Sequence record: NZ_CP011600.1
From: a plasmid
Strand: one strand, 5' to 3'
Length of the DNA stretch: 64,000 nucleotides
Both the position numbers and the translations under genes were made by a program. Below, one piece after another: positions 6,211-59,297 of this stretch (position 1 is the first letter of the stretch; each line of letters opens with the position of its first letter). The notes below the pieces were generated by a model. That model was given only the letters and a program-made list of their open reading frames with translations. It made no database searches and had not been told where the DNA came from.

Positions 6211-6293
6211 CGCCTTCTGATCGTATAAATACACACCATGAGCGTTTTCACAAAGTCTCCTTCTGCCAGGCAGCGGATAATCTTACATGTGTC

Positions 6294-6313
6294 TGTCGTT
6301 TTCAGAAGACGGC
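6294..6313 (+). repeat. 20-bp fragment matching the terminal IR of Tn402/class-1-integron-type elements (TGTCGTTTTCAGAAGACGGC)
   Basis: Exact 20/20 match to the 25-bp Tn402-family IR start as I recall it. Diverges afterwards. Lies 14 bp outside the pbr-transposon IR. Confidence 0.45.
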
Positions 6314-6348
6314 AGACCGGACTAAAAGGGGTCGCCTCAGAAAACGGA

Positions 6349-7675
6349 ATCTATGGTCACTCCCGTTTTTGCAACACCGATTTTGACGACAAGTTGGCTT
6401 GCTTGAATCTATCCGGCGTCTGAATGGGATTTTATTCCCGCGCCTCGATGAGTTCCGCGCCTGATGAACCTCCAGAAAATATACGGCTTCAATGAGCCTT
6501 TCCGTTTTACAGGTTCCTCAACAGGCCGGTGGGCCGTTAGTATCATCAATATCAGTATTCGCAAAACCAGATGAATGATTGTTTAAACTGGTGTATTTCT
6601 GCCTTTATGCTTCGTAAGTTTGCTGTCGCGCCGTCAGTGCCCAGGCTATTCTGGCCAGCTTGTTTGCCAGAGCACAGGTGACGACAAAGTTGCTTTTCCG
6701 ACACAACAACTCCCTGACCCAGTCGGCCAACTTGCCAGACTGGTGTTCCAGTTTTTGTATGAATACCCTGGCACACTGAACCAACAAAGTTCGGATCTTT
6801 TTGTTGCCCCGCTTGCTAATCCCTAACAATGTCGTCCGACCTCCCGTGCTGTACTGTCGGGGTACCAGCCCTGTTGCCGCCGCAAAGTCACGGCTGCTGG
6901 CGTACTGCTTCCCGTCGCCAATCTCAGTTGAAATAGTACTGGCAGTCAGCGTTCCAACGCAGGGAATACTCAGCAAGCGCTGTCCAACCTCATCTTCGTC
7001 CAACTTTCGTTTCAACTGAGATTCCAGATCTTTAATCTGCTCAACAAGATAGTGATAATGCTGTTGTAATTTCAGCAGTAACTGGCTGAGATAAAGAGGC
7101 AAACTACTGTCCTCAAGAAGGGTACTCAGTCGACTAATAACGGCAGCACCTCGCGGAACGCTGATACCAAATTCCAGCAGAAAAGCATGCATCTGATTAG
7201 TTGTTTTCACCTTATCCTGAACCAGGGATTCACGGACACGATGCAGAGCTCGCATTGCCTGCTGAGATTCGGTTCTGGGCTGCACGAAACGCATAGATGG
7301 ACGTGATGCTGCTTCACAGATAGCTTCAGCATCAACGAAGTCATTTTTGTTGCTTTTAACGAATGGGCGGACAAATTGCGGTGATATCAGCTTTGGAAAA
7401 TGCCCTAACTCTGCCAGCTTGCGTGCCATAAAGTGAGAACCGCCACAGGCTTCCATCGCGATGGTTGTTGCCGGGCATGTCGCCAGAAATTCGATTAGCT
7501 TTGGTCGGGTGAATTTTTTACGGTAAACGGCCTTCCCACGATGATCCTGACAATGAATATGGAAAGAGTTCTTACCCAGATCGATACCAATAAGCGCAAT
7601 GTTTTCCATGATGGTTCTCCGAATGAAAGCCTGTCCTCAGCATAGTACTGGGAAGGAGGGAGTGACCATCTCATT
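6349..7675 (-). mobile_element. IS4321/IS5075-like IS, copy 2, inside the left IR of the pbr transposon
   Basis: Outer IR half GGGGTCGCCTCAGAAAACGGA at 6328-6348. Inner half AAATAAAGCACGCTAAG at 7676-7692. Confidence 0.85.
6605..7609 (-). CDS. IS110-family transposase (IS5075 type)
   Basis: Identical to the 2155-3159 ORF. Confidence 0.9.
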   Translation of the reverse strand: MENIALIGIDLGKNSFHIHCQDHRGKAVYRKKFTRPKLIEFLATCPATTIAMEACGGSHFMARKLAELGHFPKLISPQFVRPFVKSNKNDFVDAEAICEAASRPSMRFVQPRTESQQAMRALHRVRESLVQDKVKTTNQMHAFLLEFGISVPRGAAVISRLSTLLEDSSLPLYLSQLLLKLQQHYHYLVEQIKDLESQLKRKLDEDEVGQRLLSIPCVGTLTASTISTEIGDGKQYASSRDFAAATGLVPRQYSTGGRTTLLGISKRGNKKIRTLLVQCARVFIQKLEHQSGKLADWVRELLCRKSNFVVTCALANKLARIAWALTARQQTYEA

Positions 7676-14946: not shown

Positions 14947-15381
14947 TCAGCTTAACGCCTCAAATATCATGTCCATCGAAAACCCCTTGTACTGGAGGTA
15001 GCGGATCTGTTTGTTTTTTTCTTTGGCTTCTGATGCCACCGCATCACCAAATTTACTGACTTTCAGTTCCCTTGCCATGGCATACCAGTCCACATCCACT
15101 TTCTCCAGCATCTGCTCGACCAACTCCGGAGAAAAACCTTTTTGCCTGATCTCCTGTTTGATTCTGGCCGGGCCATGTTTTTTTCGAACATGTTTATCAA
15201 TCATGTGCGTTATCAGTCGGTTATCATCCAGATAACCACACTCAACCAGCCTCGACAACGCCTTGTCGATCTTTTCTCTGTTTTCCGTCATCTTACTCAG
15301 TGTCCGGGCCAACTCACCGGATGCGTAATCCCGCCTTGCCAGTAGTGACACCGCGTGGTCATACAGTTCCTGTGATGTCAT
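14947..15381 (-). CDS. recX: RecX-like regulatory protein (RecA filament inhibitor), 144 aa
   Basis: Pattern GYLDDNRL...KHGPARIKQEIRQKGF...VDWYAMARE...KFG...KQIRYLQYKGFSMDMI matches RecX repeats by eye. Start overlaps the stop of the upstream ORF (ATGA). Confidence 0.55.
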   Translation of the reverse strand: MTSQELYDHAVSLLARRDYASGELARTLSKMTENREKIDKALSRLVECGYLDDNRLITHMIDKHVRKKHGPARIKQEIRQKGFSPELVEQMLEKVDVDWYAMARELKVSKFGDAVASEAKEKNKQIRYLQYKGFSMDMIFEALS

Positions 15382-16772
15382 GAGGCATCTCCGTTATAAC
15401 GGATACCGTCCTTTCCTACTGATAATCCTTTGATTTTATTTGCCATCAACGGCCAGAGTGCGGTTTTACGTTTATGTTGTTCGTAGAGCGTTCTGAGGTA
15501 GTCCTCTGTTTCCGGAAGCTGAGGGCAATCTTCCAGACCTTCGCCGTAATCGATGGCTTTTTTCATGTCTGAGGCGGCATGGCTGTAATACTTGCTTTTT
15601 GATTGCTGAATGTTGTCCTCCACCAAAAAGCGACGCAACAGGGTCGCCGTATGCGCATAGCCGTGTTTATACAGGGTGCTGGATAATGTCCGTAAAAATG
15701 AATGGGTGATATAAGCCAGCGAGTCGGTGAGGTTGTTTTTTGGCATGGCCATAATACAGGCGTCGATTAAATCATACCGTTCGATGTCTGACGCAAAGCA
15801 GACATACGGCGCTAACCCTGTATCTTTTGCTATTTTCAGGAATGCAGGGCTGTGATCGACATCTTTTTCAGCGGCTTTTGTGTACAGATGATAAAAACGT
15901 GTATCGCATTGAAAAGTGAATGCTGTAATACAGTGGGCTTTCGCTTCCTCTTTTCTCCCTTCTTCAATCAGGGCCTGAATGAAGAGTTCATTCCATATTA
16001 TGTTATCTGTGATCTCCTCATCGTCAATCCGCTGGCTGTTTAATACAGCGAGTGCATCGTCGGACCGCAGGTCTTCCATAAGTAATCTGACATAATCAAA
16101 ATAATGGGTGGAATGGCAAAATTCATCGTTTTTAAACGCCATCGTCAGAAAATCAAGGTCTTTTATTATCATGCTGAGACCAAGAGCTTCCCGGAGGGAT
16201 TGTTTTTGATAATACATATCACGGATTACACGTAAAATATCCGTGCCGAGTAATGTCCGGTATTTTTTAAATATCTCAATTCCAAAATAGAATTCTCTTT
16301 CAACAACGGTGAATATTTTTTTAGCAATGGATACTGGATCGTTGTTTTTTTGTGCTTCCAGTGATTTCATCCACGCATCCAACAGAATGGTATAGTAGCT
16401 CATCCAGCTTCCGCTGGAAGTGTCCACGTTCCCGGTGAATTTTTCGAACTCAAGCATCATTTTTACGCTCAGACTTTCCGCTTGCTCGGGGAGCTCGTGG
16501 GCGATACCCACAAGGGGGTTCGCTATACTGCGTGTCAGCTCGTCAAAAAAGGCATCGGCATCATAGTAATCATAAAAACGTTTGCTTTTGGCTCGTCTGG
16601 CATACTCCTTCTCGACGGCTTTAAGTACCTCTGCTGCCGATAGCAGATACCCATTCACCAGTGTGGTCCTGGCCTGCTTATTATCCTGTATCAGGTCATA
16701 AATAATATTGACCAGCACGTCATGACTCATCTCTGAAAGCTGTGCGGTTTGTTTTTTTGTTAACGGTGCCAT
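15378..16772 (-). CDS. Hypothetical protein, 464 aa, mostly alpha-helical by composition, no recognisable motif
   Basis: Long ORF. Preferred start at second Met (AGGAGG 6 nt upstream; table ORF starts 11 codons earlier at 16805). Translationally coupled to recX-like gene. Confidence 0.6.
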   Translation of the reverse strand: MAPLTKKQTAQLSEMSHDVLVNIIYDLIQDNKQARTTLVNGYLLSAAEVLKAVEKEYARRAKSKRFYDYYDADAFFDELTRSIANPLVGIAHELPEQAESLSVKMMLEFEKFTGNVDTSSGSWMSYYTILLDAWMKSLEAQKNNDPVSIAKKIFTVVEREFYFGIEIFKKYRTLLGTDILRVIRDMYYQKQSLREALGLSMIIKDLDFLTMAFKNDEFCHSTHYFDYVRLLMEDLRSDDALAVLNSQRIDDEEITDNIIWNELFIQALIEEGRKEEAKAHCITAFTFQCDTRFYHLYTKAAEKDVDHSPAFLKIAKDTGLAPYVCFASDIERYDLIDACIMAMPKNNLTDSLAYITHSFLRTLSSTLYKHGYAHTATLLRRFLVEDNIQQSKSKYYSHAASDMKKAIDYGEGLEDCPQLPETEDYLRTLYEQHKRKTALWPLMANKIKGLSVGKDGIRYNGDAS

Positions 16773-17559: not shown

Positions 17560-18199
17560 CGTGAAATTGCGCGTTCGCTCCCGTTGGGCCAATTAAGGCA
17601 TACAGTGAGCTTCAACAGGCTTATGACTGGTTCAATCTTTCCCTCTTTGATAAGGCTCTGCCGGATCTGCTGATTACGTTACAGCGCGGTCGTAACACCT
17701 TTGGTTATTTCGCGCCTGAACGCTTCACAGGGGAATCCAGCGTATCGGAGCTGGCGATGAATCCCGATTACTTCGGTGGCCGATACTCTGTCAACACTGG
17801 TGCATGAAATGGTGCACGTGTGGCAGCATTACGCCCCGTTAAAAAATGCCGGGGCGGCTATCATGATCGTGTATGGGGCGCGAAGATGGAGGAAGTCGGG
17901 CTTATGCCATCAAATACCGGCTTACCTGGCGGGAAAAAGAACGGGCAGCAGATGACGCACTACATTATCAGTCCATCATGGCGAGCCACCTGCTGGCTAT
18001 CAGCGATAAAAAATGGCGGTACGCGTTTTACGTCGCCCCGGACGAGGCGAAAAAGCGCGCCCTGAAGATTATTTTCGACAGCATCGCCAGCGTGATCGTG
18101 AAAAACCAGCATGTGCAACTGGAGGCAAAACACCGCGACGTTTTCCGCTTTTACACCCTCGATGAACTGAAAAGCCTGGAGCTGGACAACTATGCGTAA
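17560..18199 (+). pseudogene. SprT-like zinc-metalloprotease-domain gene broken into at least three reading frames
   Basis: Recognisable colinear segments lie in different frames: ...ELAMNPDYFGG (stop), LVHEMVHVWQHY (HExxH), GGYHDRVWGAKMEEVGLMPSNTGLPGGKK.., and the C-terminal ORF 17873-18199. No intact start. Confidence 0.5.
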
Positions 18200-18536
18200 A
18201 ACCACCCTTCTGGTGCTGGCCGCCGCCCTCTGCGTGCCCGTGTTCGCCACCGCCGCGCCCGTCCTGACGGCGGGTTTTTCGCCGTCTGACGGGCGCCCTG
18301 CTCTTGAAATTGTGCTCGGCGCCATAAACAACGCCAGGCAGAGCATTGACGTCGCGGCCTACAGCTTCACCAGTAAGCCGGTCGCGACGGCGCTCGCCGG
18401 TGCTAACCGGCGCGGCGTGGCCGTGCGCGTGGTGGCCGACGAAAAGGCGAACAGCGACCGCTACACCGCCGTGACGTATCTGATAAACCAGGGCGTGCCG
18501 GTGCACCTTAACGGCCGTTGCCCTCGATGTCGCTGA
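18192..18536 (+). pseudogene. nuc: 3'-truncated phospholipase-D-family endonuclease (Nuc-like); signal peptide and first half only
   Basis: MRKTTLLVLAAALCVPVFA signal. Then region similar to pKM101/IncN Nuc up to ...NQGVPVHLN. HKD motif part absent. Reading frame ends in unrelated sequence. Confidence 0.5.
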
Positions 18537-19088
18537 TCAGTTTAACCACCGCCGTTTTGACGGTTTTGATTTCAGGAAATTTCGTTTTTGGGGAGCCTGA
18601 CTGCTCCAGCGGGGATACGCTGGTCGCCGGTGCAGCTTTAGGGGCGGTTGTCGGGGTGTGCAGTTTCATCGTCATGGTCGTTTCTCCGTCAGTGTGAATT
18701 TCGTCTTCGTATCACCTGACGGTTCGGCCTGCCCGGAGTCGTTCTGGTCAGCAAGGGCGCGCAGCGTGCCATTTACCCTTGCTGACCAGGTTGTGACGGG
18801 GGACGATTACCGGAAGCTGATACGCAGGAGAAAGGCATCACAGGAGAAAATGACGATGTGCACACCCGGACTTACCGCCCCTTTAGCTGCACGGGTGAAA
18901 CCGCCTTTCAGCGTCCGGAGGACAGGTAAAAAAAAGCACTGACGACGTCAGTGCTGCCTTTGTGGCGTGCGGTGTTACACTGCCACAGCCGGTCAGTTCG
19001 CCCTTCCTGAATCCGGGGGCGGTTTGTTTTCGGGGATGTTCTGACCGGCACTTCCCCATCACTTGCAGAAATTCCACCGCCCTTTATA

Positions 19089-19104
19089 CTGTATGTATAT
19101 ACAG
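19089..19104 (+). promoter_or_regulatory. LexA (SOS) box CTGTATGTATATACAG
   Basis: Perfect CTGT-N8-ACAG with AT-rich centre. 19 nt upstream of RBS AAGAGG and ATG 19123. Confidence 0.8.
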
Positions 19105-19122
19105 TATAAAGAGGTTAATCTG

Positions 19123-19362
19123 ATGCCACGACGCTATGAAATTGACGCTGCCTGGCGTGCGGCCATCACCCGCGAACAGGATGGCCGTCAGACCGTAACG
19201 ACCGCAGCCTTTGTCCGGGAGCTGCACAAGTTCAACTGGCACTGGACGCCCCGCCAGGCTAACCAGTGGATAGAAACGTATGTAACGGTGTTCCGGGACG
19301 TCTCCCCTAATGAGGGAGAAAACCGGACGTTCCAGCTGTTTAATCCGAACGGAGGGCGCTGA
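19123..19362 (+). CDS. Small SOS-regulated protein, 79 aa, unknown family
   Basis: RBS AAGAGG at 19106-19111. Stop TGA overlaps the next start (TGAtATG). Confidence 0.6.
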   Translation: MPRRYEIDAAWRAAITREQDGRQTVTTAAFVRELHKFNWHWTPRQANQWIETYVTVFRDVSPNEGENRTFQLFNPNGGR

Positions 19363-19363
19363 T

Positions 19364-19744
19364 ATGGGGTTTCCATCACCGGCAATGGATTACCAGGAAA
19401 GTCGCCTCTCGCTGGACAGCTACTGTAAAACCGGGCGTCCGGGCGTGTTCCTGTTCCGCAGCGACTGCATCTCATTCCGGGAGGGCATCAGGCAGGATTC
19501 GCTGCTGATCGTGGATTTCGGCGCGCGGCCGGTTGACGGCTCCCTGGTGCTCTGTGTGCTGGAAGATGAATTCCGGATCATGCGACTGCGTCTCCATCCG
19601 ACCAGATATCTACAGGAGCTGGACAGGCCGGAGAACGTCCGCGCCCTGCCGGATAATGAGGATGAAGGTATCGAGATCTGGGGCGTGGTGACGCACATTG
19701 TCACCGATGCCAGAACAGGCGAGTTCGACGATAGACCAGTTTAG
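19364..19744 (+). CDS. UmuD'-like (S24 LexA/UmuD-fold) protein, 126 aa, starting at the UmuD autocleavage position and lacking Ser/Lys dyad
   Basis: Begins MGFPSPAMDY (UmuD' begins GFPSPAADY). Ends ...EIWGVVTHIV like UmuD/MucA. In ungapped alignment with MucA/UmuD, Ser (GSSM/GDSM) aligns to RSDCIS and Lys (TVKR/TVKK) to RIMR. No umuC-like gene follows. Confidence 0.7.
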   Translation: MGFPSPAMDYQESRLSLDSYCKTGRPGVFLFRSDCISFREGIRQDSLLIVDFGARPVDGSLVLCVLEDEFRIMRLRLHPTRYLQELDRPENVRALPDNEDEGIEIWGVVTHIVTDARTGEFDDRPV

Positions 19745-20026
19745 ACTTTAGGTTCTATCAGCTTAGTACCCGCAACAACCCGCAACTGGTAAGGGCTGCA
19801 AGAGACCGATAAGAAGTTAGCCTGTAACCGCTAAAAGTAACCTTAAGTTGATCAACCAGTATTAGGGTAGTATTATTACTTCACGGAAGAGTGAAGTCTT
19901 CCGTAAGGATGCAGCAGACTGAAGCAATTCAGACATCCCGCAACCAGCGTTAGTAAGCAGTTCCTATCACTGGTCCAGGCCAAGTCCGGTAATGGCGCTC
20001 TGAATACCAGGTTTAACTACCTGGCG

Positions 20027-20049
20027 AAACCCACCCTAGAGGTGGGTTT
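20027..20049. terminator. Bidirectional intrinsic terminator (AAACCCACC-ctaga-GGTGGGTTT flanked by A and T runs)
   Basis: Perfect 9-bp stem. T-run on the + strand, A-run upstream. Sits between convergent genes ending at 19744 and 20052. Confidence 0.7.
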
Positions 20050-20051
20050 TG

Positions 20052-20594
20052 TTATTTTGGGGGTTGAGGAAGTGGCTTTCCTGTAAGCAGGTTGTGCGCA
20101 ATGACGAAGAAACTAACCGATTTTCCGCGTGAAGTTATTTCCACCGGGTAAGCGCTACTGATGTGAAGGCGCAGTTTTTTCTTCTCCCGGAACGCTTTAA
20201 AAGCCACAAAATAATGTTCCGTCTCGCCGTTCGCGAGTTGAACCTCAACCGTGGCATAACTCCCGTAACCCGCGTGGATCACTTTTCTTTGCCCCAGCGT
20301 TTCTATAATACCCCGCAGATGTTGCCTGGCGAGCTGGTAGCGACGTTCGCAGAATGGACGGCTCTCCTTCACGGCATGATACATCAACGCCGCTTTATCC
20401 TCATCTGACTGGTACTCGTAATCCTTACAGAAACAATGACATGAATATGTGACGAGAAAACGATAAACCTTGTCCGGCTTGCCGGGTGCGGTATGCGTAT
20501 ACGTCACCTCATGAGCATCGAGGAAGGATAGATCACGCGTTTCACCGTCCGGGTGCGCAAAATCTTTCCATTTAGTTACTTCGCTGATGTTCAC
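20052..20594 (-). CDS. Hypothetical protein, 180 aa (Cys/His-containing; no family recognised)
   Basis: Long ORF ending at the bidirectional terminator. Confidence 0.5.
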   Translation of the reverse strand: MNISEVTKWKDFAHPDGETRDLSFLDAHEVTYTHTAPGKPDKVYRFLVTYSCHCFCKDYEYQSDEDKAALMYHAVKESRPFCERRYQLARQHLRGIIETLGQRKVIHAGYGSYATVEVQLANGETEHYFVAFKAFREKKKLRLHISSAYPVEITSRGKSVSFFVIAHNLLTGKPLPQPPK

Positions 20595-58225: not shown

Positions 58226-58556
58226 CAGGGTTACAGGGGTGTACCAGGTCAGAATTCACGTAGCGCATCCTCCCCTTCCCTGCTCCCTTCCTTTTTTTGT
58301 TCGATCCTGTTTGTCCTGGCATTACCCCAATTCTCCCAAAAACCGTAAAACAGCCATCAACCCGCGTCATTACTGGCTTCATGGAGGATCTGAGCAGAAA
58401 AAGGATCCTTTACGTATTTGGTTTTACCCGCAATAATGCGGGATAAGACAACAAAAGGATCCGCGCGCTGCGATTTATTGTCATGGCAGGATCGGCCCGT
58501 CAGGTGCAAAATACCTGTATCCATAAACAGTGCGTGCGCTACGTGAAAAATAACTC

Positions 58557-59297
58557 ATGAACAGCATCATTCCCTTGCAGAATTCACCAGAACGCGTCTC
58601 CCTGCTGCCGATCGCCCCGGGCGTTGATTTTGCGACCGCGGTGGCACTCCGGCGGATGGCCACCTCAACAGGTGCCACGCCGGCTTACCTCCTGGCGCCG
58701 GAAGTGAGCGCCCTCCTCTGGTATATGCCTGACCAGCGTCACCACATGTTGTTCGCCACCATGTGGAATACCGGGATCCGTATCGGTGAAGCCCGGACGC
58801 TCACCCCGGAATCGTTCGACCTGGATGGTCTGCGCCCTTTTGTTCGGGTGCTGTCGGAAAAAGTGCGGGCACGTCGTGGCCGGCCGCCAAAAGATGAAGT
58901 GCGTCTGGTACCGCTGACGGATGCCAGTTTTGTGCGTCAGATGGAAAGCTGGATGGTCACCACCCGCCCCCGCCGGCGTGAGCCGTTATGGCCGGTCACG
59001 GATGAGACAATGCGCAACTGGCTGAAACAGGCGGTGAAGCGGGCTGAAGCTGACGGCGTGCATTTTTCGATCCCCGTGACGCCGCATACTTTCCGTCACA
59101 GCTATATTATGCACATGCTTTATCACCGGCAGCCCAGGAAGGTCATCCAGGCACTGGCCGGGCATAAGGATCCGCGCTCGATGGAAGTCTATACCCGGGT
59201 ATTTGCGCTGGACATGGCTGCCACCCTGGCCGTTCCCTTTACCGGTGATGGGCGAGATGCCGCGGAGATCCTTCGCTCCCTGCCCCCGGCCGGCTGA
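58557..59297 (+). CDS. Tyrosine site-specific recombinase (phage-integrase family), 246 aa
   Basis: Box II HTFRHSY...AGH...EVYTRV with catalytic Tyr. Adjacent to RepFIB replicon as in F-like plasmids. Confidence 0.75.

Follow-up and report, generated by a model that had tools for sequence, protein, structure and literature searches.

The 64,000-nucleotide stretch of plasmid DNA analyzed here (sequence record NZ_CP011600.1; referred to as the window, to which positions refer unless another record or a locus is named) carries a compact two-gene cassette at positions 19087-19744, in which a box for LexA, the repressor of the SOS response, precedes a gene for a predicted winged-helix protein and a gene for a pre-truncated UmuD' homologue of the HumD family. 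The window matches, at 100% identity, pMRY16-398_1 (NZ_AP018757.1) from Phytobacter sp. MRY16-398, a conjugative IncFIB/IncFIC plasmid of 224.5 kb, and the cassette is located in an accessory region rich in insertion sequences, with IS1, IS26 and IS5075 close by and with oriT/traM (record ~153.7 kb) and psiB-psiA (~134 kb) far away. The first open reading frame (ORF1; 19123-19362, plus strand) encodes 79 amino acids (MPRRYEID...NPNGGR) and follows a Shine-Dalgarno sequence, AAGAGG (19109-19114, plus strand), placed 8 nt before its ATG at 19123. The second (ORF2; 19364-19744, plus strand) encodes 126 amino acids (MGFPSPAMDY...GEFDDRPV) and has its own ribosome-binding site (RBS), GGAGGG (19351-19356, plus strand), which lies inside the last codons of ORF1 (..N G G R stop), the two frames meeting at a TGA-t-ATG junction. 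The tightly coupled gene pair described in the original prediction, made from the sequence of the window alone, is thus present in all its elements, and this arrangement indicates that ORF1 and ORF2 are translationally coupled.

The LexA box, TACTGTATGTATATACAGTA (19087-19106; core CTGT-N8-ACAG at 19089-19104), does stand ahead of the gene pair, although it is not perfect as had been claimed, since it departs at one position from the consensus TACTG(TA)5CAGTA. By simple arithmetic, a 20-mer with a single mismatch is expected ~1e-5 times in 64 kb, whereas the bare pattern CTGT-N8-ACAG occurs three times in the window against 0.81 expected, a count that is reached in 6 of 100 shuffles and is not significant on its own. 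Among 104 related loci, 94 have a LexA-like box ahead of the ORF1 homologue, mostly ~30-40 nt before the start codon, as judged by a search of the 120 nt upstream for 20-mers that keep both CTG/CAG cores and carry no more than 5 mismatches; the loci collected comprised 19 species-genome loci, 80 of 301 viral-contig loci, and plasmid and phage loci. In random windows of 120 nt taken from these loci the frequency of such sites is ~1%, and the windows concerned largely contain the same boxes. The box is therefore accepted as real because it is near consensus and conserved among these loci, and not on the basis of the pattern count, and the SOS control put forward for this operon is well supported at the sequence level, from which we infer that LexA also governs the cassette in vivo. 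A putative sigma-70 promoter was read from the sequence at 19063-19090 (plus strand; -35 TTGCAG at 19063-19068, a 16-nt spacer and -10 TATACT at 19085-19090), its -10 hexamer overlapping the box; it was not called by a consensus scan, the -35 hexamer matching at only 3 of 6 positions, and TTGATC occupies the equivalent position relative to the box in related loci. Variation in this region was also observed. In a few plasmid loci (L007 and L008) the left half-site of the box is lost (..GAAGACCCATGTATATACAGTA), which may make expression constitutive, and the prophage type with a 129-residue HumD (L013, L014, L027 and others) has two tandem LexA-like boxes, TACTGGATGGATATACAGTA followed by TACTGTGTTTTTATCCGGTA.

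The assignment of ORF2 rests on concordant family, alignment and fold comparisons. It scored 175.7 bits against the NCBIfam equivalog NF051876, 'HumD family translesion DNA polymerase' (cutoff 120), with residues 1-126 covering profile positions 1-128 of 129, compared with 72.2 bits against the canonical UmuD model NF007621, which is below the cutoff of 110, and a weak 26 bits against Pfam Peptidase_S24. Its closest solved relatives by sequence (phmmer) are UmuD' and UmuD (1umu and 8gmt), and the top PDB fold matches of an AlphaFold2 model (predicted local distance difference test score of 82.6) are 1umu, 8gmt and 1ay9, with TM-scores normalised to the target of 0.75-0.81, so that ORF2 is predicted to adopt a UmuD'-type S24 fold. 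The protein is acidic (isoelectric point 4.7) and its ratio of nonsynonymous to synonymous substitution rates (dN/dS) of 0.13-0.19 denotes purifying selection. In this regard, ORF2 is best described, from its sequence, as a new member of an already defined family, and the novelty attributed to it as a protein type does not hold, given that the family is curated and that the loss of its catalytic lysine, described below, is the majority state in its branch.

ORF2 is 45.7% identical over its whole length to HumD of phage P1, which had been named as a precedent and proved to be a genuine one: the annotation of humD in the P1 record reads 'functionally complements E. coli UmuD'', and a LexA site is marked ahead of the gene. 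Both proteins start with M-GFPSPA, have similar lengths (129 residues in P1, 126 here), end in a tail of the form ..ND/TDAR.GEFDD.PV, and are encoded downstream of a LexA box with no umuC adjacent. On the other hand, P1 HumD keeps a lysine at the position of UmuD Lys97 and has the loop ..ADSHH.., where ORF2 has methionine and ..DCISF..; P1 humD stands alone with a divergent lxr gene, whereas ORF2 is the second gene after a 79-residue winged-helix ORF; and the former is carried by a phage and the latter by a conjugative IncF plasmid.

The M-GFPSPA start of ORF2 aligns from UmuD Gly25 onward, the residue that follows the autocleavage bond, by phmmer, hhalign and MAFFT alike, in agreement with the proposal that the protein begins at the Cys24/Gly25 cleavage point. 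This N-terminus, MGFPSPAxDY, is almost invariant among relatives and is kept in all three HumD subtypes that are linked to ORF1. An alternative in-frame start at 19310 was considered and rejected: it would add 18 residues that contain neither an arm nor a Cys/Ala-Gly site and bring no gain in the Pfam match, the ATG at 19364 is the one served by the RBS, and in the overlapping stretch dN/dS is consistent with selection on the frame of ORF1. The view that the truncation is by design and not by accident is upheld by the same three features, namely the dedicated RBS, the armless upstream extension and the selection acting on the ORF1 frame in the overlap.

With regard to the protease dyad, only part of the earlier claim that both catalytic residues are lost could be sustained. 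UmuD Lys97 corresponds to Met73 of ORF2 by phmmer, MAFFT, hhalign and a blastp comparison with the plasmid's own UmuD, so that loss of the general base is robust to the choice of alignment. The predicted loss of the nucleophile, by contrast, came from an ungapped alignment, and the HumD family is one residue shorter than UmuD between a beta-strand (ATYFVKA in one, GVFLFRS in the other) and the 'GI' motif. In phmmer, hhalign (profile-profile) and blastp alignments a one-residue gap falls after 'SF' and Ser37 of ORF2 is placed on UmuD Ser60; only MAFFT sets the gap ahead of the loop and places Ile36 there. Among 56 database homologues Ser37 is kept in 53, while position 36 shows no such constraint (T, E, Y, H, G, S and others occur), and the nucleophilic serine is thus probably retained. 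The column of Lys97 in the same homologues reads M 27, L 11, K 7, Q 4, R 4, F 1, C 1 and one gap, that is, the lysine is replaced in 48 and kept in 7, and its loss appears to be the norm in the branch of ORF2. Because Lys97 is a methionine and there is no substrate arm, the dyad is, from the alignments, broken and ORF2 is expected to be unable to cleave itself, as had been concluded in the original prediction.

Three HumD subtypes were found linked to ORF1: a prophage type of 125-129 residues, most members of which (the 129-residue group) keep serine and lysine as in P1 HumD; the plasmid type to which ORF2 belongs, with Lys replaced by Met; and a type of 102-108 residues from which the whole active-site loop is deleted. 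The last occurs in Klebsiella and Enterobacter prophages (L004, L010, L012, L029-L031, L043-L065 and others; ORF at ~6240-6560, after the ORF1 homologue) and lacks, in the alignment, ~12 residues bearing the catalytic serine. Loss of the lysine together with the existence of a loop-less subtype is the pattern predicted by relaxed selection on proteolysis once the arm is gone.

A further feature of the family is its C-terminus. ORF2 ends in ...TDARTGEFDDRPV and P1 HumD in NDARSGEFDDCPVI, and a tail of the form ..DAR.GEFDD.PV(M/I), which aligns with residues 114-126 of ORF2 (window 19705-19741), is almost invariant among HumD proteins and absent from UmuD. All three subtypes end in an acidic stretch followed by proline and hydrophobic residues (EFDDCPVM, DDDDYPVI, RDDSPV). 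The C-terminal tip of the single-stranded DNA-binding protein SSB is DFDDDIPF, and the HumD tail, being similar to it, may act as a docking peptide.

The first gene of the cassette is less familiar. No match to ORF1 was found in Pfam (none at E <= 1), NCBIfam, PADLOC or the sequences of the PDB, in line with the original statement that the 79-residue partner resembles no known family, and a search of BFVD returned only its own phage homologue. The protein belongs to PHROG 3893 (phrog_3893), for which function is unannotated, and 'DNA polymerase V' and 'hypothetical' are frequent labels of its homologues in sequence databases. When 1.84 billion representatives were searched exhaustively with a profile of ORF1, only 165 relatives emerged, nearly all of them stand-alone proteins of ~79 residues. 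The predicted topology, alpha1-beta1-alpha2-alpha3-beta2-wing-beta3, makes ORF1 a predicted winged-helix protein, and many domains of this kind bind proteins instead of DNA. ORF1 is basic (isoelectric point 9.7), and its most conserved parts are helix 3 (QANQWIE) and the wing and tail (RTFQLFNPNGG), although conservation of the tail is partly forced because the GGAGGG RBS of ORF2 is embedded there. Selection on ORF1 is very strongly purifying (dN/dS of 0-0.03, against 0.13-0.19 for ORF2); it is 100% identical on IncN/IncY and IncF/IncI plasmids whose HumD proteins differ by 7-8%, and identities among relatives are higher for ORF1 (67-73%) than for the HumD that accompanies it (30-47%).

Several candidate relationships of ORF1 were discarded. 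Three 'fusions' of ORF1 with HumD in databases look like frameshift artefacts. Three long repeat proteins (P0161, P0175 and P0212) contain 6-11 matches each to the ORF1 profile, with the unit ..GKxSxLTxxRIxELExIGFxW.., in what we take to be eukaryote-type helicase-associated-domain repeats; they are probably unrelated to ORF1, and could share a helical DNA-binding motif with it. The idea that ORF1 is AntC, the LexA-controlled antirepressor of phage N15, encoded beside the UmuD homologue of that phage, was dismissed, because gene 26 of N15 is solitary, downstream of the tail-fibre gene, and genes 30-32, those of the antirepressor, are located elsewhere. The layout of impCAB-type operons, reportedly described by Lodwick et al. 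in 1990 (a study cited in PMC11541004), is said to have a small ImpC/DinI-like gene ahead of a UmuD homologue. Such operons resemble the cassette in the co-transcription of a small gene before a UmuD-family gene, in the LexA box and in their plasmid location, but ORF1 gave no DinI-type Pfam match, its predicted fold is a winged helix and no UmuC homologue follows, and the identification of ORF1 as an ImpC/DinI-like first gene was accordingly rejected. No description of the pairing of ORF1 with HumD was found in the searchable literature, which agrees with the earlier suggestion that it is undescribed, and the same holds for the conserved winged-helix partner itself, for the decay of the general base with Ser37 retained and for the acidic C-terminal tail.

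The two genes are strongly linked. A HumD-like gene lies directly after ORF1 in 91 of the 100 loci with a readable downstream ORF, and the cassette, which occurs in at least 267 plasmid records, mostly from Klebsiella, appears to be common on enterobacterial plasmids and prophages, with relatives of ORF1 in at least 301 viral contigs, typically at the prophage end. ORF1 is present in all plasmid copies examined and in about half of the phage records with a HumD-like gene (48 records with ORF1, compared with 93 with a HumD-like gene in the phage collection). In three Pantoea-type chromosomes a lone ORF1 homologue behind a LexA box, with no HumD after it, is located ~1.3 kb upstream of a canonical umuDC (L018 and L020, 6001-6234; L021, 752-985), and this position, together with the linkage to HumD, associates ORF1 with the UmuD/UmuC pathway.

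In other plasmids, the DNA segment homologous to the window extends upstream beyond the LexA box or has its limit only a few bases from it, and its other end lies immediately short of the stop codon of ORF2; downstream of the cassette, IncN/Y, IncR and IncF/I plasmids carry higBA or unrelated genes, never umuC, and prophages carry unrelated genes. These bounds and the variety of downstream genes indicate that the cassette is a discrete two-gene unit and not a truncated umuDC or mucAB. It could still be supposed that the pair is a functionless, decaying remnant of such an operon, as the lost lysine, the lack of an adjacent umuC and the mosaic setting rich in insertion sequences might suggest. 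However, dN/dS is well below 1 for both genes, hundreds of plasmids and prophages share an identical architecture that is followed by diverse genes, ORF2 starts at the equivalent of Gly25 behind a dedicated RBS, and it matches the HumD family model over its full length. A remnant is consequently extremely improbable, being effectively refuted by purifying selection and conserved architecture, and the check for a following umuC in the cassettes of relatives, which found none in the plasmid loci compared, sides with the original prediction in this respect.

The abundance of ORF1 at prophage ends raises the question of whether the cassette is a prophage-derived module in which ORF1 is a LexA-controlled regulator, for example an antirepressor or a small DNA-binding switch by which prophage behaviour is coupled to SOS, with HumD as a co-transcribed passenger and the plasmid copies as captured phage DNA. 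In lambdoid phage HK140 the ORF1-HumD pair lies between a divergent dinI and attP, and LexA-controlled small antirepressors located next to dinI homologues are documented in Gifsy prophages and in phage 186 (PMC3121763). The ORF1 of HK140 shares with Gifsy GfoA/GftA and 186 Tum (PMC3121763) a small size, a LexA box and a position outside the immunity region, near the prophage end and beside dinI; in addition, the higher conservation of ORF1 relative to HumD would fit such a role and the predicted winged-helix fold suits binding to DNA or to a repressor. Nevertheless, neither sequence similarity nor a specific fold match connects ORF1 with known antirepressors, and ORF1 is kept, tied to a UmuD-family gene, with 100% conservation on several unrelated plasmid backbones that offer no prophage repressor to act on. 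Moreover, its lone homologues adjoin chromosomal umuDC and not prophage immunity regions, and the antirepressor operon of N15 is elsewhere and unrelated, all of which makes this explanation distinctly unlikely.

The availability of a polymerase partner is central to any function in mutagenesis. The original prediction held that there is no UmuC partner, which is correct for the operon and for the window, in which tblastn detected no umuC homologue, and yet incorrect for the plasmid as a whole. A canonical umuDC lies at 116301-118003 of NZ_AP018757.1 (L108 40302-42004, minus strand), ~60 kb from the cassette and beside parAB, encoding a UmuD of 142 residues with an AG cleavage site (..CQAG|FPSPA.., GNSM, TVKR) and, downstream of umuD, a Y-family polymerase of 424 residues (WP_047368835.1), behind a LexA box, TACTGTATATAAATACAGTA. 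From its sequence, therefore, the replicon appears to offer a UmuC-type partner in cis, besides that of the host, and it possesses both a cleavable UmuD and a pre-truncated one. Compared with UmuD and UmuD' (those of E. coli, the plasmid's own and the MucA and ImpA type), ORF2 has in common the S24 fold, the GFPSPA..DY and LLIVD..GD/GS..V motifs and LexA control, which for ORF2 is predicted. It differs from UmuD in the absence of the 24-residue N-terminal arm and of the Cys/Ala-Gly site, in Met at the position of Lys97, in a one-residue deletion in the serine loop, an extra internal loop and the acidic C-terminal tail, and in being followed by an sroH-like element and a convergent yjaZ-like gene instead of umuC.

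Taken together, these observations point to a model, to which we assign roughly even chances of being right, in which the cassette ensures an SOS-induced, cleavage-independent supply of a UmuD'-type subunit to the UmuC of the host or of the plasmid. Upon DNA damage, LexA cleavage induced by the activated form of RecA (RecA*) would derepress the promoter that overlaps the box, and ORF1 and ORF2 would be made from one translationally coupled mRNA. ORF2 would thus be a UmuD' produced directly in its 'post-cleavage' form, would be expected to dimerise and would serve as accessory subunit of a UmuC-type Y-family polymerase, be it the one encoded 60 kb away or that of the host. Translesion synthesis and mutagenesis could then start without the slow RecA*-dependent conversion of UmuD to UmuD', that is, earlier than by the canonical route, the effect being pro-mutagenic. 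The protease dyad would be vestigial, with its lysine replaced (by Met here), under selection that is relaxed because no self-cleavage is needed. ORF1, produced in step with HumD, would most likely be a partner or regulator of the same pathway that binds DNA or protein. This model agrees with the description of HumD as an already activated, shorter UmuD (PMC7092418).

Several points weigh against this supply model. P1 HumD is the only experimentally studied relative and is just 46% identical to ORF2, and the change of Lys to Met is absent from it, so that function may have shifted in the plasmid clade. A second UmuD'-type subunit is not obviously needed on a plasmid that has its own UmuD. Simple decay of the active site would not explain why Ser37 is near-invariant in spite of the loss of the lysine. 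Finally, the HumD loci of P1 and N15 contain no ORF1, and ORF1 is thus not needed for HumD function in general, which leaves its role in the model vague.

Some of the same observations could be accommodated if the cassette acted in the opposite direction. Apart from umuDC, the plasmid carries several modulators of RecA or of the SOS response, as judged from its gene content: psiB-psiA is located at 133795-134951 of NZ_AP018757.1, and a recX-like gene ('regulatory protein RecX') with an overlapping DUF6880 gene lies ~2.4-4 kb upstream of the cassette (window ~14947-16772; L001 3948-5773, on the minus strand of that locus). In such a context, ORF2 made under SOS conditions might be, along the lines suggested in the original prediction, an anti-SOS or anti-mutagenic decoy that sequesters UmuC, forms inactive heterodimers with the UmuD or UmuD' of the host or plasmid, or fills the groove of the RecA* filament, with the outcome that mutagenesis or the cleavage of LexA and UmuD is dampened. 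The presence of these other modulators would be in keeping with a decoy, as would the lost general base, the apparent redundancy of an extra activator beside a complete umuDC and the conserved acidic tail of HumD, absent from UmuD, which could dock on another partner. However, UmuD' function requires no catalysis and the loss of the lysine is hence irrelevant to this question, and P1 HumD, the only characterised member of the family, is annotated as complementing UmuD'. Furthermore, the same cassette, ORF1 included, also occurs with HumD types that have both Ser and Lys, which implies that the function of the cassette is independent of a 'dead' active site. A decoy is, for these reasons, considered unlikely.

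The order of the two genes invites a further comparison. In LexA a winged helix is followed by an S24 core, an order shared by repressors of the LexA/CI type and by the cassette, where the break between ORF1 and ORF2 falls at the position of the autocleavage site, exactly at the equivalent of Gly25. It may accordingly be proposed that ORF1 and ORF2 are the halves of a split UmuD- or LexA-like protein that reassemble non-covalently and mimic the uncleaved, checkpoint-type form, dissociation taking the place of proteolysis. Translational coupling of the halves and the conservation of Ser37 without Lys would suit such a protein, and the C-terminus of ORF1, RTFQLFNPNGGR, is similar to TFPLFSDLVQC in the UmuD arm, both being spaced 6 residues from GFPSPA. 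Nonetheless, the TFQL segment is modelled as the final strand of the wing in ORF1, the corresponding sequence in the homologue from HK140 is RYWILRNMGRVF, and the embedded GGAGGG RBS accounts at least in part for the conservation of the ..NGG.. residues. The cassette also differs from LexA/CI-type repressors in consisting of two ORFs in different frames parted by a stop codon and not of a single polypeptide that carries an autocleavage site; no PDB chain, LexA included, is similar in sequence to ORF1, which thus has no detectable relation to the LexA DNA-binding domain; the S24 part encoded by ORF2 is UmuD'-like and lacks the general base; and the database fusions mentioned above look artefactual. 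A split protein of this kind therefore seems very unlikely. A broader proposal, still rather doubtful, is that ORF1 is a third SOS-induced component of mobile systems of the UmuD'/DNA polymerase V (Pol V) type and binds the HumD dimer, one possibility being that it serves as a detachable, non-covalent stand-in for the missing arm, with the pair then behaving like a UmuD/LexA-like protein that is split where cleavage would occur. Were this the case, assembly and dissociation, and not RecA*-mediated proteolysis, would time or target translesion synthesis.

The surroundings of the cassette are composite. The 280 bp downstream of ORF2 had been described as non-coding and ending in a terminator; a terminator hairpin does lie at their end, whereas the rest is not empty, as it holds a full-length match to the sroH family of small RNAs (19877-20050, plus strand; Rfam RF00372, 111.9 bits, gathering score 80). 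The match ends in a hairpin and T-run (stem ~20027-20049) and is abutted by a promoter-like site, TTGATC-17-TATTAT (19848-19876). It is followed by a yjaZ-like 'stationary phase growth adaptation protein' gene (20052-20594, minus strand) that is convergent to the cassette and scores 251.8 bits, below the equivalog cutoff of 324. The pair formed by the sroH match and the yjaZ-like gene is also present on plasmids of Serratia, Enterobacter and E. coli, as well as on chromosomes of E. coli, and because it travels with this gene the sroH element is regarded as a module apart from the cassette. Its hairpin is the first terminator-like structure downstream of ORF2, and read-through from the SOS promoter into the sroH element is possible. 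On the upstream side, ORF fragments at 17776-18536 (plus strand) are similar to a metallopeptidase of the zincin/SprT type, with a HEMVH motif, and to a protein of the phospholipase-D/Nuc type. Intact metallopeptidase-like and phospholipase-D/Nuc-like genes flank the cassette in IncN/IncR relatives (L005 and L006), which suggests that this segment of the window derives from a backbone of the IncN/IncR type. A second LexA-like site in the window, ACCTGTATCCATAAACAGTG (58513-58532), is located ~25 nt ahead of a gene for a tyrosine recombinase of 246 residues (58557-59297, plus strand) with weak matches to Xer and integron-integrase families, all below cutoff, and its product may be an SOS-controlled recombinase.

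The HumD family has broader implications for the study of SOS mutagenesis. The decay of the catalytic dyad in most of its members, which like the winged-helix partner exceeds what has been documented for P1 HumD, constitutes a natural experiment that separates UmuD' function from catalysis. If ORF1 does not modulate Pol V, the cassette would amount to an ordinary HumD homologue with a passenger gene; if it does modulate activity of the Pol V type, ORF1 would provide a new handle on SOS mutagenesis. Error-prone Pol V is classically delayed in the SOS response by a timer, the cleavage of UmuD, and a ready-made UmuD' supplied by mobile elements would bypass this timer, which could raise both damage tolerance and mutation supply in the hosts of resistance plasmids.

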